Shown here: positions 2,269-60,935 of the stretch, one piece after another
Layout of the letters: each line of letters begins with the position of its first letter
How positions within the stretch are numbered: position 1 is the stretch's first letter
From: an uncultured Gemmatimonadaceae bacterium
Lineage (GTDB): Bacteria > Gemmatimonadota > Gemmatimonadetes > Gemmatimonadales > Gemmatimonadaceae
Reading direction: 5' to 3'
NCBI GenBank assembly: GCA_963781585.1
Contig: CAWAGQ010000005.1
Location: forward strand, 96,001 to 160,000
DNA: 64,000 nt
Position numbers and translations under genes: made by a program
Notes under the pieces: model-generated
Told to the model about the DNA's origin: nothing
The model's input: the letters and a program-made list of their open reading frames with translations, nothing else
The model's database searches: none

Positions 2269-3914
2269 ATGAATTCGCGTCGTTCGTTGCGTGCCATGAA
2301 GTCTTCCCTTCTTGCCGCCTTCAGCTCGGCGGTGCTCGTGCTCCCCGCACTTGCGCAGGGTGCCGGCACCGATCCGCGGCTCGAGAAGCTCAAGGCCGAG
2401 GCGCTCACCAGGGTCGACGCGCGTGCCAAGTTGATTCAGGAGATGGTCGACGAGGTCTTCTCGTTCGGCGAGCTCGGGTTCCAGGAGTTCGAGACGTCGA
2501 AGTACCTCACGGGCATCCTCGAGCAGAACGGCTTCACGGTGGAGCGCGGCGTGGCCGGCATTCCCACGGCGTGGGTCGCGCGCTGGGGCTCCGGCAAGCC
2601 GGTGATCTCGCTCGGATCGGACCTCGACGACATTCCGCAGGCGAGCCAGAAACCGGCCGTCGGTTACCACGACCCGATGATCGCCGGTGCGCCGGGGCAC
2701 GGTGAGGGACACAACTCCGGCCAGGCGGTGAACATCGCGGCGGCGCTGGTGGTGAAGGAGATCATGGGGCGCGAGAAGATCCCGGGCACGCTGGTGCTCT
2801 GGCCCGGGGTTGCCGAGGAGCAGCTCGGGTCGAAGGCGTATCTCGTTCGCGCCGGCGTCTTCAAGGACGTGGACGTGACGCTCTTCTCCCACGTGGACAG
2901 CAACCTCGGCGTCTCGGCGGGTCCGTCGGGCCAGCTCGCGCTGCTGTCGGCGCTGTTCAAGTTCCGCGGTCAGACGGCGCACGCCGCGGCGGCACCGTGG
3001 CGCGGGAAGTCGGCGCTCGACGCGGTGATGTTGATGGCCCAGGGGTGGGAGTTCCACCGGGAGCACATGGAACCGGTCCAGCGGTCGCACTACGTGATTC
3101 CCGATGGGGGCGATCAGCCTAACGTGGTTCCGGCGACGGCGTCCATCTGGTTCTACTTCCGCAACGTCGACTACCAGGGCGTCGAGGAGATGTTCGCGGC
3201 CGCCAGGGACATGGCCAGGGGTGCGGCCCTGATGACCGGTGCGCAGCTCGATACAGTCATCATCCTCGGCTCAGCGTGGAACGGGTGGTTCAACCGGACC
3301 ATCGCGCAGACGATGCAGAAGAACATCGAGCGCGTGGGAATGCCCTGCGTGGGACGCAAACGATGAGGCGATGGCGCGGGGGCTGCAGCGCGAGCTCGGC
3401 GTGCGCGAGTCAGGATTGGCGACCCAGGTGAACCAGCTGCGCGACGCCACGCCCACCGGTGGACGCGGTGGCCGGGGCGGTGGTGGGGGCGGCGGGGGCT
3501 CCGACGACATCGGCGATGTGTCGTGGACCGTGCCGACCGTCACGCTGCGGTATCCGTCCAACATCCCCGGTGGACCGGGGCACAACTGGGCGAACGCGAT
3601 CTCGATGGCGACGCCGATCGCCCACAAGGGCGCGGTGGCGGGGGCCAAGGTCCAGGCACTCACGCATGCTCGACATCCTGCTCACGCCGAAGGTCGTGGC
3701 AGACGCGTGGGACTACTTCCGCAACGTCCAGACGAAGGACATCAAGTACACGCCGTTCATCGGGCCGAACGACCAGCCGGCGATCTGGCTCAACGCCGAG
3801 ATCATGGCGAAGTACCGGCCGGAGATGAAGAAGTACTACTACGATCCGGCGAAGTACAAAACGTATCTGGAGCAATTGGGGATCACGTATCCGACGCTGA
3901 GGTCGATCCAATAG
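2269..3914 (+). CDS. Secreted M20 amidohydrolase, AbgB-like (two frameshifts, near 3346 and 3663)
   Basis: Signal peptide; ELGFQEFETS, GHGEGHN, PGVAEEQLG, GQTAHAA, GSDDIGDVSW, SMATPIAHKG, spread over three consecutive frames. Confidence 0.85.
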
Positions 3915-3934
3915 ACAGCGGACAGCAGACATTC

Positions 3935-4030
3935 AGCGCATCGCACTCAGCACTCAGCACTCAATCGCTCAGCACTCAGCACTCCATCGCTCAACACTCA
4001 ACACCCAACACCCAACACCCAACACTCAAC
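3935..4030 (+). repeat. Degenerate heptamer tandem repeat (CAGCACT grading into CAACACC)
   Basis: About 12 imperfect 7-bp units, read directly in the intergenic gap. Confidence 0.8.
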
Positions 4031-4035: not shown

Positions 4036-5548
4036 TTGCCTCTTCGCGCCTCCCTGCACCAGAACCCGCTCGACATCACGCCGGATGAGTTCCGGCGATT
4101 GGGCCACGCAGTCGTCGACGACCTCGCGGACTTCCTCGACGCCCTGCCGCACCGTCAGGTGACCTCCGGCGCATTCCCGGCGGCCGTCCGCGCCGCACTC
4201 GGCGGTGACGGACTCCCCGAGCATGGGGCCGATCCGGGCGATCTGCTCCGCGAGGCCACACGGCTGCTGGTGAGGGACTCCCTCTTCAACGGACATCCGC
4301 GGTTCCTGGGCTTCATCACCTCATCGGCGTCACCCACTCGGCGCCCTGGCCGACCTGCTCGCCGCCGCGATCAATCCGAACGTTGGCGGCTATGTCCTTT
4401 CCCCCGTGGCTACCGAAATCGAAGCCCAGGCGATACGGTGGATCGCCGAGTTGTTAGGCTATCCCGCATCGTGCGGCGGCCTGTTCGTGAGCGGCGGCAA
4501 CATGGCGAACTTCGTAGCCTTCCTCGCCGCGCGGCGCGCGAAGGCGCCGTGGGACGTTCGCGCGCTGGGGCTCCGTGGTGGCGAGCGCCAGCTCATCGCC
4601 TACGCCTCGAAGGAAACGCATACCTGGTTCCAGAAGGCGGCCGACCTCTTCGGACTCGGCCTCGAAGCCATCCGCTGGATTGCCGTGGACGACCAGCAGC
4701 GCATGGATGTCTCCGAACTCGAGCGTCAGGTCGCGGCCGATCGTCAGGCGGGCACGTTCCCGTTTCTGGTGGTGGGCACCGCCGGCACGGTGAGCACCGG
4801 CGCCGTCGATCCGCTGCGCGAGATCGCCTCCGTCTGCCGGACACACGACCTCTGGTTTCACGTCGACGGCGCATACGGGGCGCCGGCGGCGGCGCTGTCC
4901 GAGGCGCCCGACGATCTCAAGGCGCTGTCGCTGGCGGACTCGGTGGCGGTCGATCCTCACAAGTGGCTCTACGCGCCGATCGAAGCAGGGTGCACGCTGG
5001 TGCGCGACCCGCAGCATCTCATGGATGCGTTCAGTTTTCATCCCGAGTACTACCACTTCGCCGATATGGAGGGCGAGCAGCCGCGCAACTATCACGAGTA
5101 CGGGCCACAGAATTCGCGCGGATTCCGCGCGCTCAAAGTGTGGCTGGGGTTGCGCCAGGCGGGTCGGGCCGGACACACGCGGCTCGTTCGCGAAGACATC
5201 GCCCTGGCACGGCAGCTGTTCGACGAGGTCCGGAAGACGCCCGAGCTCGAGGCGCTCACCCACAACCTCAGCATCACCACATTCCGCTACGTGCCTCCGG
5301 ATGGTGCGGCGTCAGGTTCTGAATCTCGGGAATACCTCAACGAACTGAACGCGGCGATTCTCGAGCGGCTGCAGGCCGAGGGGGAGGTGTTCGTCTCGAA
5401 TGCGCTGATCGACGGGGCGTTCGTGCTGCGCGCGTGCGTGGTGAACTTCCGGACGACGCGGAGCGACATCGAAGCCATCCCGGGCATCGTAGTGCGCGTG
5501 GGACGCGAGGTCGCGGCCAGCCTGAGTGCGCATAGGCCAGCGGACTGA
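4036..5548 (+). CDS. Group II PLP-dependent decarboxylase (aromatic amino acid/glutamate decarboxylase family); frameshift near 4335
   Basis: HPRFLGFI, SGGNMAN, GTAGTVSTGAVDPL, WFHVDGAYG, DSVAVDPHKWLY (PLP lysine), QNSRGFRALKVW. Confidence 0.9.
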
Positions 5549-6181: not shown

Positions 6182-8934
6182 CGGACTATCCCCGGGATCG
6201 CACGCCGGATCCGGCGGGTGGTCAATTGCATCCAACGAATACCCGTCCGATTCCCGACGAACACGCCGCCACCGATCCGGCGCGGCCCGGTCATGGTCTG
6301 CCGCCGAGGCTCGCGGTGTCCCTCGTCGTGCACCGCGTCCCCGACCGCGATCGCGAGTTCCTTCTCGGCGACCTCGAGGAAGCCTTTCACCATCGGGTGA
6401 GCGCAGTCGGCCGGCGACGGGCCCGACGCTGGTTCTGGCGCGAGGCCCTTCGGATGCTCCTCTCCCCCTGGCCATCACCTCGGGCGCCTCGCGTGCCTGA
6501 CGCTCCACAGGAGACCGGTATGCGCTCGCTCCTCAGTGATCTGCGATTCGCCGTCCGCACCATCGCTCGCACGCCCGGCGTGAGCGCGCTCATCGTACTC
6601 ACGCTGGCGCTCGGCATTGGCGCGGCGAGCGGCATCTTCAGCATCGTCTATCCGGCGCTGTTCGAGCTCCCCGGCCTGCGCGAGCCCTCCCGGGTGGTGC
6701 TCCTCTGGGAGCGCGAGCGCGCGGGTACCGAGAGCAACGTCGGCTACCTCACCTTCACCGACCTCCAGCGCGAGACGAAAAGCCTCGAGTCAGCCGCTGC
6801 GATGAGCTATTGGCAGCCGATCATTCGGGGAGGCATCGAGCCTGAGCGCCTCGACGGCCAACGCGTCACCGCCCGGTTCTTCCACGTGCTCGGCGTCCAG
6901 CCGTTGTTAGGCAGGGACTTCACGCCGGAGGAGGACCGGAACGGCGCCAACCGCGTCCTCATCCTGACCTACGGCCTCTGGCAACGCCGCTTCGCGGGCG
7001 ACAGTGGCATCATCGGCCGGACGGTCCCCCTCGGCGACACGCCCTATACCGTGGTCGGCGTGCTTCCACCGGACTTCGAGAGCGTTCTCGCCCCCGGCTC
7101 GGAGGTCTTCGGGCCGCTGGGATATGACGCTTCGCTCCCCTACGCCTGCCGGAGCTGTCGCCACCTTCGCGTGGTCGCCCGCGTCCGTGACGGCTTCACG
7201 ATTGCGAGCGCCGAGCGCGAGCTGAGTGCGCTGATGCCCGCGATCATCGCGCAAGCGCCGCGGGACTACGACGACAACGGCGTTTCGCTCGTCCCGCTGC
7301 ACGACTACATGACTCGCATGGCCAGGCCGGCGCTCCTGGCACTGGTGGGAGCCGTCGGGTTCGTCTTGCTGATCGCGTGCGCGAATGCCGCCAATCTCAT
7401 CCTGGGGCGCACGATTCGTCGTGAGTCGGAGTTCGCGGTGCGCACGGCGCTCGGCGCCGGCCGACGCCGCCTGGTTCGACTGATCCTGAGTGAGAGTCTG
7501 GTGCTGGCCCTGGTCGCGGGGGCGCTTGGGGCGGTTCTCGCGGTCGTGGGAGTACGCCTCTTCCTTCGATTCCAGCCCGCAGGCATACCCCGAATCGAGC
7601 ACATTCGCGTCAACGGAGTCGTGCTCGCGTTCACCTTCCTGGTGGCGATGCTGACGGGGCTGGCGGCAAGTCTGCTGCCTGCGATCGCGACGGCCCGCAG
7701 CGATCTGCACGGGTTGCTGAAGGCCGGCGCGCGTGGATTGTCGCAGGGGGTGCGGCATCGTCTCCGGGCGACGCTGGTGATCACCGAAGTCGCGCTCGCC
7801 GTCACGTTGCTCGCCGGCGCGACCCTGCTGTTCGAGAGTCTCAGCCGGCTCCTGGCCGTCAATGCCGGCTTCGACATGCGCAACCGCCTGACGATGGAGG
7901 TACAGGTCTCCGGTTCGAAGTACAGTGACAACGCCGTGGTTCAGCAGTTCTTCCACGACGCCATGGATGCCGTCCGCGCGGTTCCCGGGGTGCTGGCGGT
8001 GGGAGCGGCGAGTGAGCTCCCACTGGGCGGCAACGTCGACATGTACGGCGTGCACAGTGACGTGAACCCGGACCCCGCTTCCGAGCGGGATCCGGCTGCC
8101 CTTCGCTACACCATGACCGCCGACTTCCTTCAGGCGATGGGCATCCCCCTGCTGCGGGGGCGCACGGTCACGGCCGACGAGGTGCGTCGATCAGACCGCG
8201 TCGTGCTGATCAACCGGGCAATGGGACAGCGGCTGTACGGTTCGGCCGATCCGCTTGGCCACCGCATTCACATCGGTGGTCCGGACAGTCCCTGGCTGAC
8301 GATCGTGGGGGAGGTGGGGAACGTGCATCATCGCGGCCTCGACTCCGGTGACGAGCTGCAGATGTACCTGCCGTTCGGCCAGCCCTACACCGACGGTGGC
8401 ATGTCGTTCGTGGTGAAGACGGCGGCCGATCCCGCCTCCTTTCCCGCGGCGGTCCGGCGTGCGATCTGGTCGGTGGATCCCAACGTGGCGATCGAAAAGG
8501 TGGCGACGATGGAATCGCTGCTGGCGCAATCGACGTCGCAGCGCCGGCTCGCGCTGACGACGTTCGGGGTATTCGCGCTGATCGCGCTGGCGCTGGCCGC
8601 GGCCGGCATCTTCGGCGTGCTGGCCACGTCGGTCGCCGAGCGCACCCGGGAGATCGGCGTCCGCACCGCGTTAGGCGCTCCGCAGTCGCGGATCCTCGGC
8701 ATGGTGGTGCGGCAGGGACTGCGCCTCACGACGGTGGGACTGGTGCTGGGCATCGGCGGGGCGCAGGCGGCCGGCCGGCTGATCGAGCGGCTGCTGTTCG
8801 GCGTGCGCCCGCACGATCCGCTGGTGCTCCTGCTGGTCAGCGCCGTGCTGGGCGTGATTGCGATGGTGGCGTGTGCGATCCCCGCGCTGCGTGCCTCACG
8901 CGTCGATCCGGTGATCGCCCTGCGGGACAGTTAG
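6178..8934 (+). CDS. ABC transporter permease, ADOP/duplicated MacB-FtsX family
   Basis: DLRFAVRTI..TPG...TLALGIGA, VLLIACANAANL, EFAVRTALGAGR, RTREIGVRTALGA, RASRVDPVIALR. Confidence 0.93.
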   Translation: MTDYPRDRTPDPAGGQLHPTNTRPIPDEHAATDPARPGHGLPPRLAVSLVVHRVPDRDREFLLGDLEEAFHHRVSAVGRRRARRWFWREALRMLLSPWPSPRAPRVPDAPQETGMRSLLSDLRFAVRTIARTPGVSALIVLTLALGIGAASGIFSIVYPALFELPGLREPSRVVLLWERERAGTESNVGYLTFTDLQRETKSLESAAAMSYWQPIIRGGIEPERLDGQRVTARFFHVLGVQPLLGRDFTPEEDRNGANRVLILTYGLWQRRFAGDSGIIGRTVPLGDTPYTVVGVLPPDFESVLAPGSEVFGPLGYDASLPYACRSCRHLRVVARVRDGFTIASAERELSALMPAIIAQAPRDYDDNGVSLVPLHDYMTRMARPALLALVGAVGFVLLIACANAANLILGRTIRRESEFAVRTALGAGRRRLVRLILSESLVLALVAGALGAVLAVVGVRLFLRFQPAGIPRIEHIRVNGVVLAFTFLVAMLTGLAASLLPAIATARSDLHGLLKAGARGLSQGVRHRLRATLVITEVALAVTLLAGATLLFESLSRLLAVNAGFDMRNRLTMEVQVSGSKYSDNAVVQQFFHDAMDAVRAVPGVLAVGAASELPLGGNVDMYGVHSDVNPDPASERDPAALRYTMTADFLQAMGIPLLRGRTVTADEVRRSDRVVLINRAMGQRLYGSADPLGHRIHIGGPDSPWLTIVGEVGNVHHRGLDSGDELQMYLPFGQPYTDGGMSFVVKTAADPASFPAAVRRAIWSVDPNVAIEKVATMESLLAQSTSQRRLALTTFGVFALIALALAAAGIFGVLATSVAERTREIGVRTALGAPQSRILGMVVRQGLRLTTVGLVLGIGGAQAAGRLIERLLFGVRPHDPLVLLLVSAVLGVIAMVACAIPALRASRVDPVIALRDS

Positions 8935-9276: not shown

Positions 9277-11026
9277 ATGAGTCGAAATCCCTGGACCGCC
9301 CTGGCAGGCCGCTGCGCGCTCGTCGTCGCCTCGGGACTTCTCATCGCCAGTCGCCCGCTGCCGGCGCAGATCGTCACCGGGACGGTCACCGATGCCCAGT
9401 CGGGCGCACCGGTGCGGGGCGCCGTCGTGACGCTCACCGCGCGCGCGGGGAACGGCAGTGTGCGACGCACCGTCAGCGACCCGGCCGGGACGTTCGCCCT
9501 CGGCGCTCCCGCCCCCGGATCGTACACCCTGGACGTGCGCGCCATCGGCTTCACCCCCTGGATCGACAGCACCGTGACGTTAGGCGCGGGCGAATCGCGC
9601 GTCGAACAGGTCGCCCTCAAGCCGTTCACCGTCCGGTTGGCGACCGTCCGTGTGCAGGGGCGCAGTGCCTGTCGCCGGTCCGGCGATCTCGATGTGGTCA
9701 CCACCGAGGTCTGGGACAACGTGTGGGCGGCGCTGGCATCCACCGAAATCGCGCACGCGCAGCAGGTGCAGGCCGACGTCTTCATGTACACCCGGGAGTT
9801 CGACGCCGAGTCGGGCGTGGTGCTCTCCGAGGACCACAACACCATTCAGGTGCGGGATGAGCGTCCGTTCCGCACCGCGCCGCCGGCCGAGCTTGCCCGG
9901 TACGGCTACTGGCGCCAGACCGTCGGCGGGCAGATCAACTACTACGGGCCCGACGCGCAGGTGCTGATGTCCCCGGAGTTCCTGGCCAGCCACTGCTTCT
10001 CGCTCGTCCGGGACGACAGCGCCGCCGCTCCCCGCATCGGACTCACCTTCCGGCCCAGCCGGGGCAACGCCAACGACGTGGAAGGAGTGCTCTGGATCGA
10101 TGCGCTCAGCGGCGAGTTGCGCGATCTCGAGTATGCCTACACCGGCCTTCCGCCTCTGCGTGGACGCCGCGCCGAGGGGCAGATCTCGTTCTCGCGCCTG
10201 CCCAACGGTGTCTGGGTGGACGATCGCTGGCTGATTCGCCATCCGCTGCAGCCGGGCGACGGATCCAGGCCGTCTCGTGACGCCCGCTCGCTGGAGATGC
10301 GGGAGGGGGGCGGCTTCGTGCTGACCAGCTTGTCGAGGGAGAACTATTTCGTCACCGCCGTGGGGCACATCCGGGATGGCGTGAACCAGCCGGCTCGCGG
10401 CGCGACGGTGGAGGTCATCGGAACGGACAAGCACGTGCTGGTGGATGAGGAGGGGGCATTCCGCATCGATACGATTCTGGAGGGCACGTACGAGATCCGC
10501 GTGATGCGTGCGGGCTCGGCGGAGGCTGGCGGCTTCGTCCAGCTGGGCACGGTCCCCTTCGAGGCGGGTGGCGCCACGCGTGTGGACGTCCGCGTTCCGG
10601 AGGTCGGACGCATGGTGGCGGACCTCTGTGAGGGAAAGACGCGACCCGATGGCGTTGCGCTCTACGGTGTGCTGCGCGACATCCATTCCGGTCGACCGGT
10701 CGCCAACTACGGCATGGAGGTCGGGTGGTCAACGCTCCTCGATTCGTCGGCCGGTACGCCGGTGCGGCGTCGCGCCGGCGGCGCCACCGTGACGTCCGAT
10801 TGGCGCGGTGCCTTCCTCGTGTGCAACGTCACGCCGGGAAGTGACGTGCGCTTCCGCGCCGCGCGCGCGAAGGACGAGGACTGGAGCCAGTTCCTCCCGG
10901 CAGGCTCGCACCTGTTCGCCATCGAGATCGCGGTGGACACCGCCGCGAAGGGCTCGGCGGGCAGGGGGACTTCAGCCGATCCAGACGCTCGGCGAGATCC
11001 TACCGAAGACCAGGCCGTGGAAATAG
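9277..11026 (+). CDS. Secreted protein with carboxypeptidase-regulatory-like domains; true end probably 11026 (indel near 10965)
   Basis: Signal peptide; GTVTDAQSGAPVRGAVVTL...G.YTL.VRAIGF. An alternative frame ends GGLQPIQTLGEILPKTRPWK* at 11026, directly before a hairpin. Confidence 0.75.
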
Positions 11027-11113: not shown

Positions 11114-14100
11114 CTATCCCGGCCCGGCGCCGAACCCGCGGCCATTCTTGACCCGGTTGGGCACTTTCGCCCACTGGTCGGTCGTGAGGATCGCCTGCGC
11201 CTGCTTCAGGGCGTCCTGCTGATTCTTCTGGAGCTTGTCCAGCTGGGGCCGGAGCTTCGGCATCAGCGCCGCCATATCCGGGTTCGCCCCGGCGTTCGCC
11301 ACCTGCTTCTGCACGTCCTGACCAAGCACGGTGTTCTTCGCATTCAGTGAGTCCGCGATCACCTGCAGCTTCGCGACCTGATCATCGCTGAGCTTGAGGG
11401 TGTCCTTCATCTGAATGATGGAATTTACCGGATTCACGTTCGCCAGCGCCGTCGCGAATCCAGCGGGACCTCCGCCTCCGGGACCGCCACCGCCACCACG
11501 CCCGCCACGGCCGCCGAACGCCGCGCCGCGAACGGCGTCGATCGCGTCACGGACGCGGTCGGGGCCGAGCGTGTAGCGTGCGTTGATGCCCACCTGGAAC
11601 GGGATCTGGATGCCGTTCTGCCCCTGCCGCGACGAACCGAAGCGCTCGTTGACCTGATAGATGTAGCTCTGCGACGACGGATCGAAGCCACGCACGTAGA
11701 GCAGCGTGTTGTCCTCGCCGCGGAACGAGCCCCAGCCATGCAGGCTGTTCTTGCCGTGGAGGAGCTGGTCCATGCCGCCCAGGAAATTCTGGGTCACCAC
11801 CGACACCATCAGGCGACGGTTCAGTCCAAGCACCGCCGGGCGCCAGTTGAGCTGGAACTCCAGGCTGGTCTGCCACGGTCCGCGGCACGAGTTGCGCTCG
11901 GCGATGGTGCCGAGGTTCCTGCTCAGGCACTCCCGCACCCCCGGCGACGTGCCGGCGAGCAGGCGCTCCATGCCGCTGGCGACCGCGGTATCGCCGACGC
12001 TGGACGGGTTGAACAGGAACGCCCGGTCGTTTCGTGCGCCGTCACCGTTGATGTCCGCACTCACCATCGGTGTGAACGGCGATCCCGACGACAGCCGTCC
12101 CACGGCAGTCACTTCCATGCCGAGGTTGATCGGATAGGTGATCGATCCGGTGATCGAGTGGCGGCGATCGAAGTTGCTCACGGCCCACTCGTGCACATTG
12201 GGGTCGCCGGCGGTGGTGGCCGACGAGAAGCCTCCGCCGCCCGAGGAGAAGCCGCCACCGGTGTTGCGCCCGAAGCCTCCGCCGCCGAATCCGCCGCCCG
12301 AGGACTGGTCACGCGAAAAGCCGAGCGTGTAACCCAGGTTGAAGATCGCGCCCCGGGTGGTGATGCCGTTCAGCGAAAGCGACAGCTGCTTCGATTCCGA
12401 TCCGAGGTTGGAACTCGTCAGCAGCACCTGACTGAAGTTCGGATTGAGTCGCGAGGCGAGGAGGTTGGTGGTGCCGCTGGTGGGCACGATCGAGGCCGGG
12501 TCGGCATACACCGGCCGCCCGTCCTCCGCCGCCAGATTGAACTGCGGGGTCTCGCGCAGATTGAGGTCGCGATATCCGGTCTGGGCCACCCCGCGCGAGT
12601 AGCTGAGGTCGGCGCTGAACGAATAGCGCTCGAAGAACCGGCGCTGGGCACCTAACGAGGCGCGCCATGCGCGGGGCGCCTGGAAGTTCTTGTCGAACAG
12701 CGTGACGTTGGGCACGCCGGTGGGAGAGTAGAGGTTCCCGCCGCCGACGCACTCGGTGGGAATGCTCGACGGGTCGAGCTCGAACGCCGACCAGTCCGGT
12801 TGCGGGACGTAGGCGCCGGTGCACACCAGCTGCGCTTCCGAATTGGCGAGGCCGGTTGCCGCCGCCGCCGCCGAAAACAGGTTGGAGCTCACCGTGCTGC
12901 GGAATTCACCGATTCCACCGCGCAGGATGAGCGGATTGCTCCCGCCACCGCGACCGCCGAATCCGCCACCGAATCCGCCCCCGCCGCGACCACCAAATCC
13001 GCCGCCGCCGCGACCGCCGAAGCCGCCCCCACCACCCGCCCCTCCACGACCGCCACCGTCCGCGCCACCCGGGCCGCCACCCGACGAACCGAGCGTCATC
13101 GTGAATCCCACCCGCGGACTGACGTGCACCTCCTTCGGCAGGAAGTCGGTGCGGTGTCCGAACGCCTGCTCCACCGCCGGATTCTCCCTGGGCGCATTGC
13201 CGAAACGTCCCCCCTCCAACCGGCCGCCGTAGGTGACCTGCAGAGACCGCGAGACCCGCCAGACATCTCCGAGATAGAGCCCCGCATTGATCTGCGACCC
13301 CTGTCGCACGTTAGGCTGCAGCGTCCGGGTGAAGCTCGTCGCCTGGCCGGCGTCGAAGTCCGCCAGCGAGTTGAACATGTAGGTCCCGAACCGGTTCGAC
13401 GTCACGTCCTGCTTGAACGTCTGCTGGTTGAGCAGCCCGCCCAGCTTGAACCGGTGTCCCGGCGTGAGCCAGGAGACTTCGTCGGTGGCCTCGAATCCGG
13501 TGCTGCGTCCGTTCTGCGGCAGGCCGGTGTTCCCGCCGAAGGTGAGGGTGGACACCGCGCGCGTGGCGTCGCTGGTCAGGTCGGAGGCGACCTGGACGCG
13601 GCCGGCCGGCAACGTGAGGAACGCTCCCTGGTTCCGCTGGCTGCCGGAGTAGTACGCCTTCAGCTCGTTGATGTACTTGCCGGCGAAGATTGACGTATAC
13701 GTGGCCATCATCCCGGCACCCCGGTTCTTCGACGTCCCGCCTGTCTGCGGCAGAGACAGCGTCCCCACCCGCGCCGGATCCTGGTCACTCCAGTTCCAGT
13801 CCCATCGCAGCGACAACGAATGCCCATTGGGCATCAGCCAATCCGAGCGGACCAGTCCGGAGAGGTTATTCGACGTGCGGTTGGGATCGAAATACGACCC
13901 CGCCTTCATGCCATTCTGCGCCGCGATGCTGAAGAAGCGCGCTACCGAATCGGAGCTCACCCCGAAGCGCGACAGCGTGGTGGCATCGGCATTGTACAGG
14001 GACGGAAGAATGTCCTGGCGCTGGCGAAGCTGGAGCGACCCGAACGCGAACAGGTTGTCCTGCACGATGGCCCGGCCGAACCCGCCGGACAGCTGGTTCT

Positions 14101-14950
14101 GCGTGTAGCCCTGTGACAGCGGCGACACATCCTCGCCGCTGATCACGAGCTGATCGTCGCGGAGCTGGTAGGAGAAGTTCCCCTGGGGCCGATTGGTGCC
14201 CGACCGCGTCGTCGACGCGATCAGACCGCCCGAAAACTGCCCGCGGGTGACATCGTAGGTGCTGGTGATCACCCGGGTGCTGCGGGTGGCCTCGGACGGC
14301 ACCTCGGTGGTGCCGAAGCTCACGCCATCCAGCGTGATGGCGTTCGCCTCGGGGCGCTGCCCGGCCACCGAGAACCCCGCCGCTGTGGTGTCGGACCCGG
14401 TGATCGCCACCACGTTAGGCGACAGGAGCGCCAGGTTCAGCAGGTCACTGGCATCCACCGGGAGCCGGGCCGCCTGGTCGGGCGTAAACGCCCGCTCGAT
14501 CGACCCCGGCGTGGGGAGATCACCACCGCGCGGGAGTGGCTGCCGTGCCTGGACATTGACGCCCTGCAGCGTGGTCGCGTTCATCGACAGCACCGCGTCG
14601 GCCACCAGCCGGTCCTCGTCGGCGATCCGCGTGAGCCGCTGGGCGTTTGGCGCGAGACCGATCTGGCGGATCACCACCTGGTAGTCGCCGCCACCGTCCG
14701 GGAACAGGATCGTGTATCGGCCCTGCGCGTTCGTGCGAGCGCGCCGCGTCACGCTGGTCTCGAGCGACGTGACCTCGACGGTCGCGCCCTCGATCGGGGC
14801 GCCGTTCTCCGCCTTGACGGTCCCGGTGATGATGTCGGTGGTGACGCCGATCTGCGCGCGCGCCACGGCGGGTGCAGTGAGAAACAGCGCGAACACGAAT
14901 GCAATGCGGTGCCAGCGTCGAGCGCCAGGCGCCAGGGCACGAAGTGGCAC
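11114..14950 (-). CDS. TonB-dependent-receptor-like (Oar-type) outer membrane protein with N-terminal carboxypeptidase-regulatory domain and C-terminal helical extension
   Basis: RBS AGAGGAG, signal peptide, plug-like SVAGQRPEANAITLDG...GQFSGGLIASTTRSGTN, barrel strands, SPRVGF, Gly-rich loops. Confidence 0.85.
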   Translation of the reverse strand: MPLRALAPGARRWHRIAFVFALFLTAPAVARAQIGVTTDIITGTVKAENGAPIEGATVEVTSLETSVTRRARTNAQGRYTILFPDGGGDYQVVIRQIGLAPNAQRLTRIADEDRLVADAVLSMNATTLQGVNVQARQPLPRGGDLPTPGSIERAFTPDQAARLPVDASDLLNLALLSPNVVAITGSDTTAAGFSVAGQRPEANAITLDGVSFGTTEVPSEATRSTRVITSTYDVTRGQFSGGLIASTTRSGTNRPQGNFSYQLRDDQLVISGEDVSPLSQGYTQNQLSGGFGRAIVQDNLFAFGSLQLRQRQDILPSLYNADATTLSRFGVSSDSVARFFSIAAQNGMKAGSYFDPNRTSNNLSGLVRSDWLMPNGHSLSLRWDWNWSDQDPARVGTLSLPQTGGTSKNRGAGMMATYTSIFAGKYINELKAYYSGSQRNQGAFLTLPAGRVQVASDLTSDATRAVSTLTFGGNTGLPQNGRSTGFEATDEVSWLTPGHRFKLGGLLNQQTFKQDVTSNRFGTYMFNSLADFDAGQATSFTRTLQPNVRQGSQINAGLYLGDVWRVSRSLQVTYGGRLEGGRFGNAPRENPAVEQAFGHRTDFLPKEVHVSPRVGFTMTLGSSGGGPGGADGGGRGGAGGGGGFGGRGGGGFGGRGGGGFGGGFGGRGGGSNPLILRGGIGEFRSTVSSNLFSAAAAATGLANSEAQLVCTGAYVPQPDWSAFELDPSSIPTECVGGGNLYSPTGVPNVTLFDKNFQAPRAWRASLGAQRRFFERYSFSADLSYSRGVAQTGYRDLNLRETPQFNLAAEDGRPVYADPASIVPTSGTTNLLASRLNPNFSQVLLTSSNLGSESKQLSLSLNGITTRGAIFNLGYTLGFSRDQSSGGGFGGGGFGRNTGGGFSSGGGGFSSATTAGDPNVHEWAVSNFDRRHSITGSITYPINLGMEVTAVGRLSSGSPFTPMVSADINGDGARNDRAFLFNPSSVGDTAVASGMERLLAGTSPGVRECLSRNLGTIAERNSCRGPWQTSLEFQLNWRPAVLGLNRRLMVSVVTQNFLGGMDQLLHGKNSLHGWGSFRGEDNTLLYVRGFDPSSQSYIYQVNERFGSSRQGQNGIQIPFQVGINARYTLGPDRVRDAIDAVRGAAFGGRGGRGGGGGPGGGGPAGFATALANVNPVNSIIQMKDTLKLSDDQVAKLQVIADSLNAKNTVLGQDVQKQVANAGANPDMAALMPKLRPQLDKLQKNQQDALKQAQAILTTDQWAKVPNRVKNGRGFGAGPG

Positions 14951-21570: not shown

Positions 21571-21608
21571 CGCAGCGGTTCCGGCGTCCTGGTGAGCTGG
21601 TCGCAGGC

Positions 21609-23886: not shown

Positions 23887-23894
23887 GCCACCGG

Positions 23895-24222: not shown

Positions 24223-24223
24223 T

Positions 24224-25954: not shown

Positions 25955-25956
25955 CC

Positions 25957-46475: not shown

Positions 46476-47387
46476 CTACTCCTCCATCGTCACCGCCTGC
46501 TGCCTGACGAGCACCAGCATGCTCGCGCCGGCCACGATCGTCACCGCGCCGGCCACCGTCCATAGCGTGAACCGCTCGCCGAAGAGCAGCACCGCCCACG
46601 CCGCCGCGAAGACGATCTGCAGATAGCCGGTCGTGGTGGCGCGCGCGGTGCGCTCGATCTGCAGCCCGCGCGTCATGTACATCTGCGCGAGCTGGGTCGC
46701 GCACCCCGGCGCCGATCAGGAGCGCCCACTCCACCAAGCCAGGCATGCGCCAGTGCAGCGCCACGAACGGCAGCGCCATCGGGATCTGCACCAGCGGCAG
46801 GTAGAAGACCACCACCATGGGGTGCTCGACCTCGAGCCGGCGGATGGTCGCGTACGCCGCGCCGCTGCACGCGGCCCCGCCGAGCGCAATGAGGGCCCAG
46901 ACCGGCGGAATGCCGCTCGACGCACCGCCGAACAGCAACGCCGGCCGGGTGACGAGCAGCACCCCGATCAGCGACGTCGCCAGCGCCAGCAACTCGCGCT
47001 TCCCGATGTGTTCGTGGTACCAGAGCGACGCCAGAATGATCGCGAATACCGGATTGGTGTACTGGATCAGCGTTGCCTCGCCTAACGGGAGATGGGTGAG
47101 CGAGAAGATGAAGCAGGCCAGGGCCAGCGACCCCAGATGCCCCGCAGGACGAGCAGCCGCCGCTGGACGCCGAAGATCGCCCGCCCCCGCACCGCCCGGC
47201 GCAGCAGCACCAGGTAACTCAGGCCCAGCGTCACCAGCCCGCGATACAGCACGATGTCCATGCTCGGCACGGTGCGCCCGGCGAGCTTCACCAGCACGCT
47301 CATCACGCTGAACCAGAACGCGCCGATCGCCATGTAGCGGATGCCCGACGGGACGTCGGCGACCGCGTGCGTGATGGTGCGGGTCAT
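46476..47387 (-). CDS. DMT/EamA family transporter (frameshifts near 47135 and 46705)
   Basis: GIRYMAIGAFWFSVMSVLVK, LPLGEATLIQYTNPVF, QMYMTRGL, YLQIVFAAAWAVLLFGE. Confidence 0.88.
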
Positions 47388-50673: not shown

Positions 50674-53600
50674 CTATCGCAAAATGTCCACCAGTTGACG
50701 CTCCGCCGCCTCCAGCGCCGAGCGCACCTGAGCCAGCTGCGCCCGCTGGGTACTGGTCGGCGGATACAGGCTCCCTTGCTGCTCACCACTCCCGTTGAAG
50801 GCGTTGGCAATGCCGCCGAGCCGCCCCGCTGCACCACCGCGTCCCCCAGCCACTGCCCGGGCCACACTCGTTAGGCGTTGGAGTGCCGAGTCGGCGGCAG
50901 CCCGCTCGGCGCTCCCCTCGGCCGCCGCGTCACGGCGCGCCGCCGCGTCGCGGCTCGCGGTCGCCACCCGTCGGCTGAAGGCCTGCAGCCGCTGCTGCAG
51001 CGCGGCATACATCCAGCAGGAAGGTCTCCCGTTCCTTGTACTGCGCCAGCGTGAGCGGCAGCAGCGGATCGGGCGCCGACCCGCACCGACGTGCGCGCCT
51101 GCGCTCCGTCGGCCGTCAGCGTAATGGTGTACGTCCCGGGCGACACGAAGGGACCGCGGGGACCGATGTCGTGCGGCAGCGCCGCGCGCTGCTCTGCAGC
51201 CAGGCGTGCTGCTTCCGGATCGGCCGCCCCACGCCCGCCCCCGCCCCCGCCCCCGCCACGTCCACCCCGGCCACCACGCCCTCCTCCCACCGCGACGTCG
51301 GCGCCAGCCGCTCCACCCGTCTCTTCTGCCGTAACGAATCCACCGCCGAATCCCGCCGCAGCCGGTGGCTCATGACGCAGATCCCAGTTCACCCGCAGCA
51401 GCGTTCCCGCGACTCCGCGTCCCGTGAGCGTTCGCACCACCTTCCCATTGGCGTCGCTGATCGTCACCGAAACCGACTTCGCCGGCTCCTTGAGTACGTA
51501 CGTGATCAGCGCTCCCTCGGCCGGATTCTCGGCGGCGTACTCGCCCTGCCCCCAGTTGGAATAGTCCGCCCAGTACTGCATGAGCGTGGCGGCACGCACC
51601 GGGAAAAGATGGACCCGTTCCGCGGCCACCGCGTTGGACCAGGCCGCGAGCGGACTCGCGTCGTCAAGAATCCAGATGCTCCGCCCGTGCGTCCCCAGAA
51701 TCAGGTCCTTCGTGCGCGGATGAACCAGGATGTCATCGTAGCGCGTGGTCGGCAGATTGCCCGTGAGCTTCGCCCACGACTTCGCCGTGTCGGTCGACAC
51801 GTACAGGCCGAACTCCGTGCCAGCGAACACCACCCGCGGCTGACCCGGGTATTCGCGAACCGAACGCACCGACTGCGCCTCGGGCAGGCCCGCAATGACT
51901 TTCTTCCACGTGCGCCCGAAGTCCGTGGTGCGGAAGATGTACGGCGCGAAGTCACCCGACCGGTGCCCGTCGAACGACGCATACGCCACGCCGCGACCGG
52001 CCGACGACCCCGCCACGCGGCTCAGGCTCGTCCCGTCAGGCACACCGCTGACGTTGTGCGAGACCTCGGTCCAGGTCGCGCCGCCGTCGCGCGACACCTG
52101 CACGTTGCCATCATCGGTGCCCACCCACACGATCTGCCCATCCAGCGGCGACTCGGCGATCGTCGTGATCTCGCTGAAAGAGGACTCCCCATCGTTCTTC
52201 GACAGCATCGCCTCGCGACCGGACACCCCCATGATGCTGAGCGTATCGCGATTCACGCGCCGCGTGAGGTCCTTCGTTGGCGTCCAGCTGGAACCGTGGT
52301 CGTGTGAGATGAACAACCGGTTGCCACCCGCATACACCACGCCCTTCGTGTGGCGTGAGGCGAGGATCGGCGCCGCCCAGTCGAATCGATAGGCGGAATC
52401 GCCGAGCGCCGGCGTGGGCTTGATGTCGAGACGATCGCCGGTCTCGATGTCGACGCGCTGGAGATTCTGCTCGTCGCTGTTGCTGTACACCCACCGCGGC
52501 ATGAACGGATCGGGCTGCTGATAGACGCCGTCGCTGAATCCGATCTGCTTCCAATCGGTGTTCACGATGCCGAGCCAGTGCCGTGTGGCGCTGGGTCCCA
52601 TCCACGAGTGGTTGTCCTGCATCCCGCCGTACACCCGGTAGGGATCCCGGTCGTCGGCGCCGATCGCGTAGAACTGCCCGATCGGAATGTTGTTCAGCCG
52701 GATGAAGCTGTTGGCCGCATCCCAGGATTCGAACAGGCCGCCGTCGCCTCCGAGGTAGAGGTGCTCCGGGTTCGTCGGATCGATCCACAACGCGTGGTGG
52801 TCGGTCTTGAGCCCCACGTCGTACGTCGGCTGGGTGGGGGAATTCCGGAAGGTGCGGCCGCCATCGTCGCTGATCTGGACGCCGTTGCCGAGGATGTACA
52901 CACGCGCATCGTTGGTCGGGTCGATGAAGATCGCGCTGTAATACATCGGCCGGGGATTGACCCGGCTTACCCGGGTCCAGCTCTCGCCCCCGTTGTCGGT
53001 GCGATACGTGCCCGTCTCGGTGGCGTGCTCGATGGTGGCGAGGATATAGTTGCTGTTGGTCGCCGAGATCGCGAGACCGATGCGCCCCTTGTCACCCGGC
53101 GGGATCCCGTTGGTGAGACGATGCCAGGTGGCGCCGCCGTCGGTGGTCTTGTAGATCCCGCTTCCCGGTCCGCCGCCGTTGAATCCCCACGGTGTGCGCA
53201 ACCGCTGGTAGGTGGCGGCGATGAGCGTGTTGGGATTGTTCGGGTCCATCACCAGATCGGTCACGCCGGTGAGCGTGTCGACGAACAGGGACTTCGTCCA
53301 CGTGCGTCCGCCATCGGTGGTCTTGAAGACACCGCGTTCCGCACTCGGCTTCCAGAGATTTCCCAGCGCCGCGACGTACGCGACGTTGGGATCGGATGGG
53401 TGCAGCCGGATCCGGCCGATCGCACGCGTCTGTTCGAGGCCGACATGCGTCCAGGTGTTGCCGCCGTCGGTGGAGCGGTACACGCCATCGCCCCACGACG
53501 AGCTCTGTCGATTGTTCTGTTCTCCGGTGCCGACCCAGACGACGTTCGGGTCGCGGGGAAAGATCGCCACGACTCCGAACGTGGCCGTTCCCTCATGATC

Positions 53601-54067: not shown

Positions 54068-55417
54068 TCAAGGTGCGATCGTCGACGCCGCGCGCCTTAC
54101 CAGCCACCATCCGACCACCCCGGCGATGGTCGACGCCACGATCACGCCCGCCTTGGCGGCATCGAGCATCCGCCCCTCGCCGAAGGCCAGGTCGCCCACG
54201 AACAACGACATCGTGAACCCGATCCCGCCCAGCCACGCCGCCCCGTGCAGCATCGGCCAGCTCACCCTTTCGGGCAGACGGGCCAGACCGGTGCGCGTCG
54301 CCAGCCAGCTGAACGTCAGGATCCCGAGGGGCTTGCCCACCACCAGGCCAAGGCCGGCGCCTAACGTGACACGACTGGTGAGCAGTTCGCCGACCCCCGT
54401 CAGGGCGACACCGGCATTGGCGACCGCGAACAGCGGCATGATCACGTATGACACCACCCCGTACAGCGCATGCTCGAGCCGCAGCAGCGACCCCTGCACG
54501 CTCTCGCTGGCGATGCGCAGGGCGTGAATGGCTTCCTGCTGCCCCTTGCTGGTGAGCACCAGCAGGTCCCCCGTCTCGGAGCGATCGAATCCGTCCATCA
54601 GACGACGCACGCGCGCCGAGAATTCGGCCGCGTTGATCTCGGTGCGGGTCGGGATGGTGAGGGCGAGCAGCACGCCGGCGATGGTGGCGTGCACGCCCGA
54701 CGACAGCAGGGCGAGCCAGAGCCCGACTCCCACCAGCAGGTAGGGAGCCAACGGACGCACCCCGAAGGCATTGAAGGCGACCAGGGCGGCCATCGCCACG
54801 GCGGCGGCGCCGAGGGAGATCCACTGAATGGCCGCTGTGTAGAAGACGGCAATCACCAGCACGGCGCCCATGTCGTCCACGATCGCCAGCGCGGTGAGAA
54901 AGACCTTGAGTCCGACCGGCACCCGCGCCGAGAGAATGGCCAGCACGCCGAGCGCGAAGGCGATATCGGTGGCCATCGGGATGCCCCACCCAGCCGCCCC
55001 CGCTGCCCCCGCGTTGACCAGCGCGTACAGCAGGGCCGGGATCAGCATCCCGCCTAACGCGGCGGCGATCGGCAACGCCGCCTGGCGCCGGGACGACAGC
55101 TCCCCCACCAGGAGTTCGCGCTTGATCTCGAGCCCCATCAGCAGGAAGAAGACGGCCATCAGGCCGTCATTGATCCAGTGACGCAGTGTGCCGGTGAACG
55201 GGTTCCGCACCGGTCCGATCGCAAGCTGCGCGTCCCAGAGGCGGAAGTAGTCGTCACGCCAGGGCGAATTCGCCCACGCCAGGGCCAGCGCGGTGCAGAC
55301 GAGCAGCAGCACGCCGCTGGTAGCCCCGACGCGGGTGAATTCCTGGAACGGTCGCAGGGCATTCATCAGCAGCCGCGCGGGCATGCGCGGCTCGGGCCCT
55401 CTCTCTGGCTCCGCCAT
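54068..55417 (-). CDS. nhaA: Na+/H+ antiporter NhaA
   Basis: WINDGLMAVFFLLMGLEIKRE, GWGIPMATDIAFALG, LAIVDDMGA, SGVHATIAGV, GIGFTMSLF. Confidence 0.95.
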   Translation of the reverse strand: MAEPERGPEPRMPARLLMNALRPFQEFTRVGATSGVLLLVCTALALAWANSPWRDDYFRLWDAQLAIGPVRNPFTGTLRHWINDGLMAVFFLLMGLEIKRELLVGELSSRRQAALPIAAALGGMLIPALLYALVNAGAAGAAGWGIPMATDIAFALGVLAILSARVPVGLKVFLTALAIVDDMGAVLVIAVFYTAAIQWISLGAAAVAMAALVAFNAFGVRPLAPYLLVGVGLWLALLSSGVHATIAGVLLALTIPTRTEINAAEFSARVRRLMDGFDRSETGDLLVLTSKGQQEAIHALRIASESVQGSLLRLEHALYGVVSYVIMPLFAVANAGVALTGVGELLTSRVTLGAGLGLVVGKPLGILTFSWLATRTGLARLPERVSWPMLHGAAWLGGIGFTMSLFVGDLAFGEGRMLDAAKAGVIVASTIAGVVGWWLVRRAASTIAP

Positions 55418-56644: not shown

Positions 56645-58121
56645 ATGCGAAGATCCTCTCTCGCCACGCGGCTGATTGCCGCCGCGCTGACCTCGCTCGC
56701 GCCCCCCGTCCTGCTCGCCCAGAGCATGTCGGTGGACATCGAGAGCGGGACGTGGGCGCTCACCAACGCGCGGATCGAGACCGTCACCAAGGGCACGATC
56801 GCCAAGGGCACCATCGTCATTCGCAACGGCGTGATCGATGCGGTCGGTGCCAACGTCACGCCACCGCCGGACGCGAGGGTCATGGATCTCTCCGGCAAGA
56901 CGGTCTATCCCGGGTTCATCGATCTCACGTCGACGATGGGGCTGACAACGGAGGCGCCGGCCGGTGGACGGGGTGGCCGCGGGGGGGGCGGGTTGAACCT
57001 CCCTCCCGGTGTGACCCCCGAGATGGTGGCGGCCTTTCTCGGCCAGGCACCAACTCAGCAGGAAGGGCCCGCGGAATGTGGGGCTCGAGCCGGGACGCGA
57101 CGTGGCCAGCGAGATCAATCCGTCGGCGACCGACGTGCGCGCGGCCCGTGATCAGGGAGTGACCGCGGTGCTGGTGGCGCCCGGTCGCGGCCTTTTCCGT
57201 GGCCGGTCGGCGCTGGTCCCGATGCGCGACGACACCGCGGCGCACTGGATCGTGAAGTCGCCGGTGTCGCTGAACGTGGGCTACCAGGGCGTACCCGGCC
57301 AGTACCCGGGGACGCTGCTGGGTGTGATCGCCTATCAGCGGCAGGCGCTGTACGACGCCCAGCCGTCACGCGATGGTCGTGGACCGCTACAAGGCGGACC
57401 CGCGCGGGATGCCGAGGGAGGAATACAATCCCGACCTCGACGCGCTGGTACCGGTGGTGCGTGGCGAGCTGCCGATGTTCATCGCGGCGAGCAACGAGAA
57501 CGAGATCCGCCGGGCGCTGGCCCTGGCGAAGGAGTTCGACGTCAAGGTGACGGTGGTGGGTGCCACCGAGGGATTCGAGGCGATCGATGCGCTCAAGTCG
57601 GCGCGGCCGCCGGTGGTCTCGGTGAACTTTCCCGATGCCGCAGCAGGTGACGGGCTGGGACTACGCGTTCGCCACGCGACCGGGCTTCGCGATGGACAGC
57701 GCGGCGCGGGTGGCAGCGGTCCGGAAGGACGTCGAAGGAAACCCCGCGGCCCTCAACGCGGCCGGCATCAGAGTTCGCGCTCGCCTCGGGCGGGCTCGCG
57801 CCTAACGTCTTCATGGCCAACGTGAAGAAGGCGATCGCCGCCGGCCTGCCGCGCCAGACGGCGCTCGAGGCGCTGACCATCCGTGCCGCCGAGATCGCGG
57901 GCGTGGACCAGCAGCTCGGCAGCATCGAGCCCGGCAAGATCGCGGACCTGGTGATCACCGAGGGCGACGCTGACCGACGGCGGGCACGTCCGCACCGTCT
58001 TCGTGGACGGCGACGACTACGCCGTGGTGCCGGCGCCGCCGGCCGGCGGTCGGGGCGGCCGCGCCGGTGGCAATTCCACACCTCCGAATCCACAGGAGAA
58101 GCCATGACGCCGATGGCATGA
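56645..58121 (+). CDS. Secreted amidohydrolase-fold protein 1 (no HxH motif; several frameshifts)
   Basis: ALTNARI...GTIVIRNG.I, DLSGKTVYPGFIDL, LGSIEPGKIADLV. Confidence 0.8.
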
Positions 58122-59549
58122 CTGACGGCCGGGGCGGCGTCCGTTGGGGGCGGCGCCCGATCGTTTCGTTTCACCGCCGGCGCCCTGGCGGCAGCGTTCC
58201 TCGTTCGGCGCGTCGGTCGGAGGGGCGCAGGATGCGCCACAGGCGACCGGCGGCTTCGATCCGCTGACGCTGCCGGTACCGCCGGCCGGGACGCTGGTGG
58301 CGATCACCCACGCCAACATCATGACGGCGAGCCACGGCAACATCATGAACGGCACGATCCTGATCCGGAACGGCAAGATCGCCGAGGTCGGGACCAACGT
58401 GCAGGTGCCGGCGGGCGCGAAGATCATCGACGCCACGAACAAGTGGGTCACGCCGGGCATCATCGACGAGCACTCGCACAGCGGCCCCGAGGCGATCAAC
58501 GAGGGGACGCAGTCGATCACCGCCGAGGTGCGCATCGGTGACGTGCTCAAGGAGGACGGCATCTCCTTCTACCGCCAGCTGGCCGGCGGCACGACGACCA
58601 TCAACGTGCTCCACGGTTCGGCCAACACCATCGGCGGCCAGAACCAGGTGATCAAGCTGCGGTTCGGGCTCCCGGTGGACAGCATGCGGCTTCCAGGGCG
58701 CGCCCCCGGGCATCAAGTTCGCGTTAGGCGAGAACGTGCGGCAGACCACCGCGCGCCGACACCACGCGCTATCCGCGCTCCCGCATGGGCCAGGAGGACG
58801 TGCTGCGCGAGGCCTTCACCCGCGCCCGCGAGTACCAGCACGAGTGGCAGGCCTACGACAAGGTCAAGGCCGATTACGACAAGAGCAAGAAGGGCGCGGC
58901 GCCCATTCCGCCCCACCGGGACCTCGAGCTCGACGCCCTGGTGGAGGTGCTCGAGGGGAAGCGGCTGGTCCACGCCCACTCCTACCGGGCCGACGAGATC
59001 CTGATGCTGCTCCGGGTCGCCAAGGACTTCGGGTTCCGGGTCGCCTCGCTGCAGCACGTGCTCGAGGGCTACAAGATCGCCGACGAGATCGCGGCCGCCG
59101 GCACCGGCGCGAGCACGTTCGCCGACATGTGGGGCTACAAGGCCGAGGCGTGGGACGCCATTCCGTACAACGCGGCCCTGATGGCCGAGCGTGGCGTGAA
59201 CGTGACCATCAACTCCGACTCCGACGAGCGGGCCCGCCGGCTGTATCAGGAGGCGGCCAAGGCGATGCGGTTCGGCGGCGCGTCGGAAGAGACGGCGCTC
59301 CGCATGATCACCCTCAACGCCGCGATCCAGCTCGGCATCGACAAGATGGTCGGCTCCATCGACGTGGGGAAAGACGCCGACATCGCGATCTTCAACGCGC
59401 ATCCGTTCTCGCCGGTGGCGCGGGTGGACATGACGCTCATCGACGGCCGGGTCTTCTTCGACCGCAACACCGCACCGACCCTCGAGTGGCTGATGCAGCA
59501 GATGAAGGCGAAGGGCAAGATCGCTTCCGACGGGGAGGGGGGGCGATGA
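58118..59549 (+). CDS. Amidohydrolase family protein 2 (metal-binding DEHSH; frameshifts)
   Basis: TPGIIDEHSH, LHGSANTIGGQ, HAHSYRADEI, QHVLEGYK, INSDS, GSIDVGKDAD. Confidence 0.88.
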
Positions 59550-60935
59550 AGGCCACAGGTCAGAGGTCGCAGGTCAGCGGCCGTAGTCGGGGTGCCGTGG
59601 GGTCCATGCGTCTGGCCGCGCTCCTGCTCGTGGCCTGGTTCGCGTCGCCGGCGGTGCGCACGCAGGGGCCGGTCGTCATTCGCAATGCGACCGTGATCCC
59701 GGTTACCGGACCGCGGATGCAGGACGCGATCGGTGGTGATGCAGGACGGCAAGATCTCCGCGGTGGGGCCAACGTGCAGCGCGCCGGCCGGTGCGCAGGT
59801 CATCGACGCCACCGGGATGTTCGTCTATCCGGGCCTGATCAACGCCGGTACCAATCTGGGATTGGTGGAGATGGGCGGCGTGCCGGGCCCGATGGACACG
59901 CGCGAGCTGGGCGACTTCAATCCGCAGGATCTGGTGATGACGGCGGTGAACGCGCAGTCGGAGCACATCGCCATCACCCGGGCGAACGGCATCACCAGCG
60001 CGGTCGCGGTGGCCGGCGGCTCGGTGATGTCGGGCATCGCCGCCCTGATCAATCTGTACGGCTATACCAACCGCGACATGATCGCGAAGGAGAAGCTCGC
60101 GCTCCTCCTCTCGTGGCCTAACGTCGGCGGCGGCGGCGGGCGCGGACGTGGCGGGCGGGGAGGCCGGTTCGGGGGCTCCGGCGCGGGCGGGAGCGCGGCG
60201 AGCGAATGGCCGCCTACCAGCGATCAGGTGCGCCAGATCTACGACTGGTTCAATGATGCCAAGGCGTATGCCGACGTGAAGTCACGCCTCTCGGCCAACG
60301 GGGCGCAGCTTCCGATCTCGTTCCACGAGAACCTGCAATACGATGCCATGACGCCGGCGATCCGTGGCCAGATGCCGGTCCTGGTGGATGCCAATACCGT
60401 GGAGCAGATGCGCGACGTGATCAGGTTCGCGGACAGCATGAACGTGAAGGTCATCATCCACGGCGCGCGACGAAGGGTGGAAGTATCGCGGACACGCTGG
60501 CCGATGAAGCACATTCCCGTGGTCGTGCCGCCGCTCACGTCCGAGCCGCCGAGTGAGGACCGTATACGACGAGGTGTACGCCAATCCGGGCGTCATGGCG
60601 AAGGCCGGCGTGATGCTCGCCTTCGAGACCGGCGGCGCATCGAGCGCGCGTGACCTGCCTTACGAGGTGGGGCTCGCCGAAGCGTACGGACTCGATCCGG
60701 AAGAGGCGCTGAAGGGGATCACCATCAACCCGGCGAAGATGTTCGGCGTGGACAACGAGTACGGATCGATCGAGGTCGGGAAAGTGGCGAACGTGATCGT
60801 GACGACGGGTGATCCGATCGACATCCGCACGCTGATCAAGCAGATCTTCATTCGCGGGCAGCGCTGCAGTTCGACGACCGGCATACGCTGGAATACGAGA
60901 AGTTCCGGGCGCGGCCGAAGCCGAAGAAGCCGTAA
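59546..60935 (+). CDS. Secreted amidohydrolase-fold protein 3 (no HxH motif; frameshifts)
   Basis: VYPGLINAGTNLGLVE, RANGITS, ITINPAKMFG, GSIEVGKVAN; ends YEKFRARPKPKKP*. Confidence 0.8.

Follow-up and report, generated by a model that had tools for sequence, protein, structure and literature searches.

The window analysed here, 64,000 nucleotides in length (positions 96,001 to 160,000 of contig CAWAGQ010000005.1, from an uncultured Gemmatimonadaceae bacterium), contains 23 exact copies of the octamer CGTTAGGC (hereafter the word), 11 on the plus and 12 on the minus strand, each at the coordinate given in the initial annotation. Shuffling of the window yields 1.25 ± 1.09 copies, with 0 of 100 shuffles reaching 23; the chance expectation estimated earlier was about two. 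The word is not a palindrome (its reverse complement is GCCTAACG), is conserved at the DNA level, and may constitute a tag recognized during DNA uptake.

Copies in the window and in a sister strain

Eighteen of the 23 copies lie within genes called by a self-trained caller of our own, on a contig that carries frameshifted genes such as kdp. Eleven of these are read as TTA-GGC (Leu-Gly), at 8669..8676 (+, ABC permease), 9578..9585 (+), 17049..17056 (-), 17757..17764 (-), 33846..33853 (+, Ser/Thr kinase), 34158..34165 (+, which forms with the preceding copy the closest pair of the window, at 312 bp), 36080..36087 (+, M20 peptidase), 42993..43000 (-), 44832..44839 (-), and 54359..54366 and 55052..55059 (both -, in the same Na+/H+ antiporter gene). 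Six are read as CCT-AAC (Pro-Asn), at 3117..3124 (-, M20-family gene), 13309..13316 and 14413..14420 (both +, in one outer-membrane receptor gene on the minus strand), 23406..23413 (-, histidine kinase), 42308..42315 (+) and 60116..60123 (-). The two readings initially proposed as typical cover 17 of the 18 copies in called genes, the other being CTA-ACG (Leu-Thr) at 57800..57807 (-). Of the five remaining copies, two make stop codons, at 47080..47087 (-, the TAG of open reading frame [ORF] 47082-47426(-)) and 50869..50876 (+, the TAA of ORF 50871-53849(-)), one lies in the DUF4118 ORF 22085-23188 (22689..22696, +), and the others are at 35276..35283 (-) and, in a frameshifted amidohydrolase region, 58722..58729 (+). 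All five of the single-mismatch copies reported earlier are also present, at 4452 (4452..4459, +) and 6905 (6905..6912, +), both the tolerated variant TGTTAGGC, which is enriched in genes and keeps away from exact copies, at 12650 (12650..12657, -; tolerated variant CGTTAGGT), and at 50383 and 62153.

The genome bin to which the window belongs (G000; 5.7 Mb, 67% G+C) comprises two co-assembled sister strains with 88% identity across 623 kb (contig pairs C5/C8, C2/C6 and C11/C17), which accounts for its 7% contamination; the duplicated contigs raise the copy count of the bin but not the density. Its proteins match those in records named Gemmatimonadaceae with a median identity of 64%, vs 40% for named Verrucomicrobiota, which places the bin in Gemmatimonadaceae. 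Between the sisters, at 88% identity, 19 of the 20 window copies that can be aligned are unchanged, so that neither base calling nor codon use accounts for the word as an artefact. The exception is 17049..17056, where the sister carries CGTTAGGT; 44832..44839 has no alignment to the sister, and 22689..22696 and 23406..23413 fall in a strain-specific kdp region. Across the bin the word is conserved between the sisters at 82%, compared with 45% for all 8-mers, and third-codon positions within it are 93-99% conserved vs 70-87% in the flanks, supporting the signal at the level of DNA that had been proposed from the window.

The G+C content of the window is 62-70% per 2 kb. Both of its reported copy-free stretches are real (10,440 and 6,228 bp), and both overlap blocks that are missing from the sister contig, a kdp block at 21501..32323, with two copies near its left end and none past 23,413, and a block of lower G+C content (63%) at 37899..40745 with no copies. 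The suggestion that absence of the word marks recent acquisition fits these two stretches but is weak as a general rule, as strain-specific DNA carries 0.195 copies per kb (22 in 112.6 kb, leaving out contig C6, whose partner is shorter) compared with 0.26 in shared DNA. Within the kdp region, frameshifts at 24013-31194 split the kdp genes and a porin ORF continues into kdpD, reflecting either assembly error or decay. At 44766-47426 a transporter gene is interrupted, its 3' part being duplicated around a PIN toxin-antitoxin pair (45734-46408). Rfam gave no matches in the window.

Abundance, spacing and base composition

Genome-wide, the word is the top 8-mer of the bin, with 1,442 copies (724 on the plus and 718 on the minus strand) spread over all 17 contigs, vs 44-51 expected under Markov models of order 2-3. 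The excess persists under a codon-aware model, genes carrying 1,114 copies compared with 34.8 after synonymous-codon shuffling (∼30-fold). GGC follows 835 of the 1,318 TTA codons, and the word is used to write 755 of 4,691 [ASPT]-L-G sites and 269 of 1,100 P-N sites. All four open frames are used, with 763 of 1,131 in-gene copies sharing one frame, and the word also supplies gene ends (70 of 91 CGT-TAG and 44 of 52 GCC-TAA) and occurs in intergenic DNA. Its imprint extends to the proteome, since the observed/expected ratio of [ASPT]LG is 1.41-1.42 in the two densest genomes vs 1.09 in word-poor ones, and 1.02 for the reverse order. Occupancy is 4-7% in genes whose G+C content at third codon positions is below 0.8 and 25-29% in those above 0.85. 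No extended flanking consensus surrounds the copies of this bin, which tolerates pyrimidine swaps at word positions 1, 4, and 8 as well as CGTTATGC, and in whose genes CGTCAGGC, a variant with a disrupted GTT core, shows 3-fold enrichment. An interpretation of the word as a hairpin was rejected, as C is disfavoured at position -1.

Copies in the bin are spaced out. With coding opportunity held fixed, 12 pairs closer than 300 bp are found vs 77 expected, with recovery by 600-800 bp, and the avoidance also operates across gene borders (8 vs 25 pairs within 600 bp). A second genome (G009) has five gaps below 100 bp vs 22 expected. Tolerated variants likewise avoid exact copies, 0.04-0.09 of them lying within 300 bp of one vs 0.147, while neutral words mostly give 0.11-0.17, suggesting that the same process reads the variants.

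Each copy is also the centre of a G+C halo. Within the same gene, fourfold sites less than 200 bp from a copy are 2.1 ± 0.2 points richer in G+C than those more than 400 bp away (795 genes); the effect extends about 200-300 bp, symmetrically on both sides of the word, and at codon positions 1-2 it amounts to 1.1 points. Values at look-alike sites lacking the word were about zero (-0.1 to -0.5). The halo recurs within 100 bp of copies in G239 (+2.0, 5.5 standard errors), in G009 (+1.2) and in Verrucomicrobiota (+0.9; about two standard errors each for the latter two), all with site-level errors. Between the sisters, the probability of G/C given A/T in the other strain is raised near copies by 0.056 ± 0.026 and that of A/T given G/C lowered by 0.012 ± 0.003, with no clear change in C-G swaps (88 genes). 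G+C-biased conversion gives such a pattern, which is here of modest strength.

Strand bias relative to the replication origin and terminus could be scored on C4, the sole contig on which dif could be placed (a dif-like site at 569,339, without the word). There the word shows no replichore polarity (leading vs lagging 0.165 vs 0.149 and 0.295 vs 0.267) and no polarity toward dif of the kind seen for the FtsK-orienting sequences KOPS.

Within the phylum sample, word-rich genomes fall into scattered clades, all belonging to one order, at least 150 copies being found in 14 of 41 near relatives, 13 of 221 genomes across the phylum and none of 69 outside the order (the count in one genome, G171, derives in part from integron attC arrays). 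On an RpoB tree built by a fast method (51 rows, leaving out six genomes without an RpoB match and another six whose matches were partial or not fetched), the word-rich state requires eight changes, at least five of which are forced by strong branches. The density of the word spans about 40-1,250 per Mb, drops almost to zero in close kin and reaches 1.0-1.25 copies per kb in the densest genomes. A scan of all species genomes for triple copies detected, among the matches listed, 80 named loci, of which 18 have copies dispersed on both strands (10 in Gemmatimonadaceae and 8 in Chthoniobacterales/Verrucomicrobiae) and the rest are repeats or arrays. Five word-rich Verrucomicrobiota genomes carry 2,498-5,186 copies each, and 5 of 200 genomes in their class exceed 100. 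Preferences vary, G239 favouring NGTTRGGC and Verrucomicrobiota copies gaining a 5' T (89% of 137). A literature search, which had most subscription papers and all supplements outside its scope, found no published description of the word in these taxa.

Several other repeats were encountered. A widespread CRISPR-like repeat of cyanobacteria, Haliangium and Planctomycetota contains CGTTAGGC (loci L185, L188, L210, L235, and others). A second, weaker word in the bin, GATTCTCG/CGAGAATC, shows 3-fold enrichment in genes once codon usage is accounted for, and no avoidance of the octamer. The window has intergenic tandem arrays of heptamers (TGGCCTT/TGACCTT units) at 5607-5661, 5733-5841, and 9034-9209, and AAAGGCCAAA, the top 10-mer of the bin, is found in clusters of such arrays on several contigs.

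Candidate explanations

The initial annotation had offered four roles for the word, as an uptake-sequence-like, Chi-like, methylation-linked or nucleoid-protein site. The first fits best, in the form of a tag that resembles uptake sequences and is spread by transformation with short DNA fragments, an explanation put forward tentatively, its probability being judged a little short of even. It is proposed that CGTTAGGC (core GTTAGG, with a tolerance that varies by lineage) would act as an uptake sequence, outside DNA that bears the word being preferred at a sequence-selective step in the type IV pilus/ComEA/ComEC pathway. Short fragments, perhaps of about 500-700 bp, would then recombine into the chromosome, where word-bearing alleles would replace wordless ones, a form of molecular drive. 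A second copy inside one fragment length would gain nothing, so that copies would space out, and G+C-biased conversion in the recombined tracts would produce the symmetric halo; one length scale could account for both spacing and halo if it is short word-tagged fragments that are taken up and recombined. The bin encodes ComEC, ComEA, DprA, pilins, and a secretin, as do word-poor kin, and both phyla have genes for competence. In Haemophilus influenzae, uptake of short fragments is reported to peak centred on the uptake signal sequence (USS), with close pairs adding nothing (PMC7811141), the spacing of the neisserial DNA uptake sequence (DUS) has been found to agree with conversion-tract length (PMC2397512), and a peptide enrichment like that of [ASPT]LG has been reported for USS and DUS (PMC2817400). 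The lineage-specific tolerance of the word resembles the dialects of such systems.

A number of observations weigh against this explanation. Methylation-directed repair would give spacing and halo as well, and the halo could also arise if the word settled where recombination is already high. The longest copy-free gap of the bin (38.7 kb) spans recA and ftsK, and sister identity is not higher near copies. An identical core is used in two phyla, although a self tag should differ between them, and no other abundant word was detected in six word-poor genomes and one weakly enriched genome (46-87 kb sampled from each). Densities of 0.7-1.8 copies per kb are attained in phage records chosen for their paired copies; one word-bearing phage is 98% complete and lacks a tyrosine integrase. 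Lifestyles could be assigned for few of them; drive would reach lytic phages poorly. Clear spacing-out is lacking in Verrucomicrobiota (32 vs 36) and in word-bearing phages (19 vs 25 gaps below 200 bp). Unlike USS and DUS, the word forms no close intergenic inverted terminator hairpin in any of its eight pairs closer than 100 bp in the bin. No receptor for the word was identified, and ComEA (76/76), DprA (60/64), and PilW (60/80) occur in word-poor genomes too, none of them tracking the word.

To our knowledge, sequence-specific uptake tags are established only in two proteobacterial families. If the uptake explanation is true, the word would be a third such tag, common to two abundant soil phyla and their phages, implying that gene flow in soil is guided by sequence, and might hold the key to transforming these groups, which are hard to culture. 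The halo provides about 1,400 marked sites for a base-resolution study of G+C-biased gene conversion, a process described in bacteria (PMC4450053).

A less probable but credible alternative is that the word is read by an intracellular repair or recombination enzyme (as a nickase site, a methyl-directed strand signal or a Chi-like stop for a nuclease other than AddAB), whose short two-sided repair patches would favour fixation of the word on any DNA replicating there, phages included. Spacing and halo are compatible with such an enzyme, which would also account for the enrichment in phages, and phages without recombination genes of their own are reported to accumulate Chi (PMC12315714). Elhai's ratchet for HIP sites, an example of such a methyl-directed signal, envisages saturation near one site per kb, a neighbouring site bringing no gain (PMC4390886), and the densest genomes do stand at 1.0-1.25 per kb. 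However, better repair should cut divergence near copies, which is not seen, rather than raise A/T-to-G/C change, and no enzyme that tracks the word was found. The one core methyltransferase, an Eco57I-like N6 enzyme beside an SNF2 helicase (G000:C2:155388-160996, locus L094, and also sister contig C6; catalytic motifs intact), is present in 75 of 76 Gemmatimonadales irrespective of the word and follows the species tree, enzyme and helicase making up a core, orphan-like pair. It has no full-length match in any of the five word-rich Verrucomicrobiota, and the best single column of its alignment separates word-rich from word-poor genomes by just 0.56. A methylation-linked role is left with no tracking enzyme, this core methyltransferase being the one profiled. 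The Chi-like option is weakened by the lack of polarity and by the rarity of AddAB-sized helicase-nucleases, matched in one of 16 word-rich Gemmatimonadales (one more being cut by a contig end) vs 12 of 30 word-poor ones, counts in which kin are not independent; such a match occurs in 7 of 10 word-bearing Verrucomicrobiota, and G000 has one weak PDDEXK match. When ∼460 kb of DNA from Verrucomicrobiota, a minor fraction of the genomes concerned, was compared with the G000 proteome, no DNA-handling gene of unusual identity emerged. Separately, a C5 methyltransferase fused to Vsr adjoins an EcoRII-like endonuclease within an island (G000:C7:477213-479892, locus L097).

It is improbable that the word instead nucleates a chromosome-coating protein that spreads over a few hundred bases and shields the DNA, evenly spread sites being selected. 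Coating would yield both the spacing-out and a symmetric halo, G/C-to-A/T change is indeed lower near copies, and a kilobase-scale periodicity has been interpreted as coating for HIP1 (PMC5861425). Protection alone, however, predicts a probability of G/C given A/T near 0.47 by our own two-state calculation, about two standard deviations from the 0.53 observed, and so variable a density (about 40-1,250 per Mb, close to nil in near kin) is hard to reconcile with it; no candidate protein was found.

Two further possibilities involve integrons. The R box of attC sites has the consensus GTTRRRY, and in seven arrays of word-poor relatives CGTTAGGC makes up 40 of the 59 attC ends, a share inflated by the fact that the arrays were found via the word; it is chiefly at such ends that these relatives retain it. 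Either the match is coincidental or it points to what the reader evolved to capture. A small probability, comparable to that given to coating, is assigned to the latter view, in which two soil phyla would independently have tuned uptake to a cassette-ending word, fishing cassette-sized DNA (about 500-700 bp) from soil. Halo and cassette spacing would then share a scale of ∼500-700 bp, with copies in own genes and in phages as a by-product. If true, the word would be an uptake tag directed at the mobile genes of other organisms and not at self DNA, which would explain how the same word arose in at least five clades and a second phylum. Were the attC match causal, it would provide a route between cells for non-replicating integron cassettes, a possibility that has been raised (PMC4889954).

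That the copies are themselves core sites of the integron integrase IntI, whether as decoys, secondary targets or by-products, is very improbable, and IntI is probably not the reader, because neither IntI nor attC counts track the word and the tolerances differ. G000 does have an IntI and attC sites carrying the word, which together with the biased 40 of 59 attC ends would suit such an origin. IntI exceeds the cut-off, however, in 13 of 25 word-rich vs 33 of 51 other genomes, and the median number of attC heads is 7 in 25 rich vs 5 in 43 poor genomes. CGTTAGAC accounts for 7 of the 59 attC ends but has two copies in genes, whereas CGTCAGGC is enriched despite its broken core. An attC scan gave no matches in the window, whose copies sit in genes, no two of them closer than 312 bp, and not as the inverted R boxes that bound a 55-140 bp hairpin behind a cassette ORF. 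The integron features of the bin are an integrase with a loose cassette region, and attC sites distant from it (G000:C7:155000-187000, C13:335129-338230, C4:663997 and C11:121902).

Codon-pair bias, a protein motif or long-read base-calling error, which the long-read-type frameshifts of the contig and the predominance of one frame (763 of 1,131 copies) might suggest, can practically be dismissed, as the codon-aware null gives only 35 copies, the word occupies four frames as well as stop codons and intergenic DNA, and among genomes assembled independently 14 of 41 and 13 of 221 carry at least 150 copies.

Comparison with known systems

By the features tested, the word is not HIP1, Chi, KOPS or attC. 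It is letter-identical to the commonest end of the integron attC core site (R box) in the arrays examined, but differs from attC sites in occurring as single copies inside genes with no hairpin partner, in its tolerances and in not tracking IntI. Like the Chi sites of RecBCD/AddAB, it is a non-palindromic octamer enriched in some phages and is linked here to a conversion-like footprint; unlike Chi, it has no replichore polarity, its halo is two-sided, and AddAB-sized matches are mostly missing in word-rich Gemmatimonadales. With HIP1 (GCGATCGC) of cyanobacteria it shares hyper-abundance as an octamer in genes, conservation as DNA, a ceiling close to one copy per kb, and end positions at which one-mismatch variants occur, although it is not a palindrome and the core methyltransferase examined does not track it. 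HIP1 has itself recently been proposed as an uptake tag (PMC13756078).

The word is not filed as a member of the DUS/USS systems, since terminator pairs are absent and its receptor is hypothetical. It also departs from them in having no extended flanking consensus (in G000) and no receptor found, and in its occurrence in two phyla and phages with a patchy distribution within one order. It nonetheless resembles the USS of Pasteurellaceae and the DUS of Neisseriaceae, which are likewise described as short, non-palindromic sequences occurring up to about once per kb without strand polarity (PMC2817400, PMC2397512), and which also lie within genes, where they enrich certain peptides, are sparse in atypical genes and have lineage variants.

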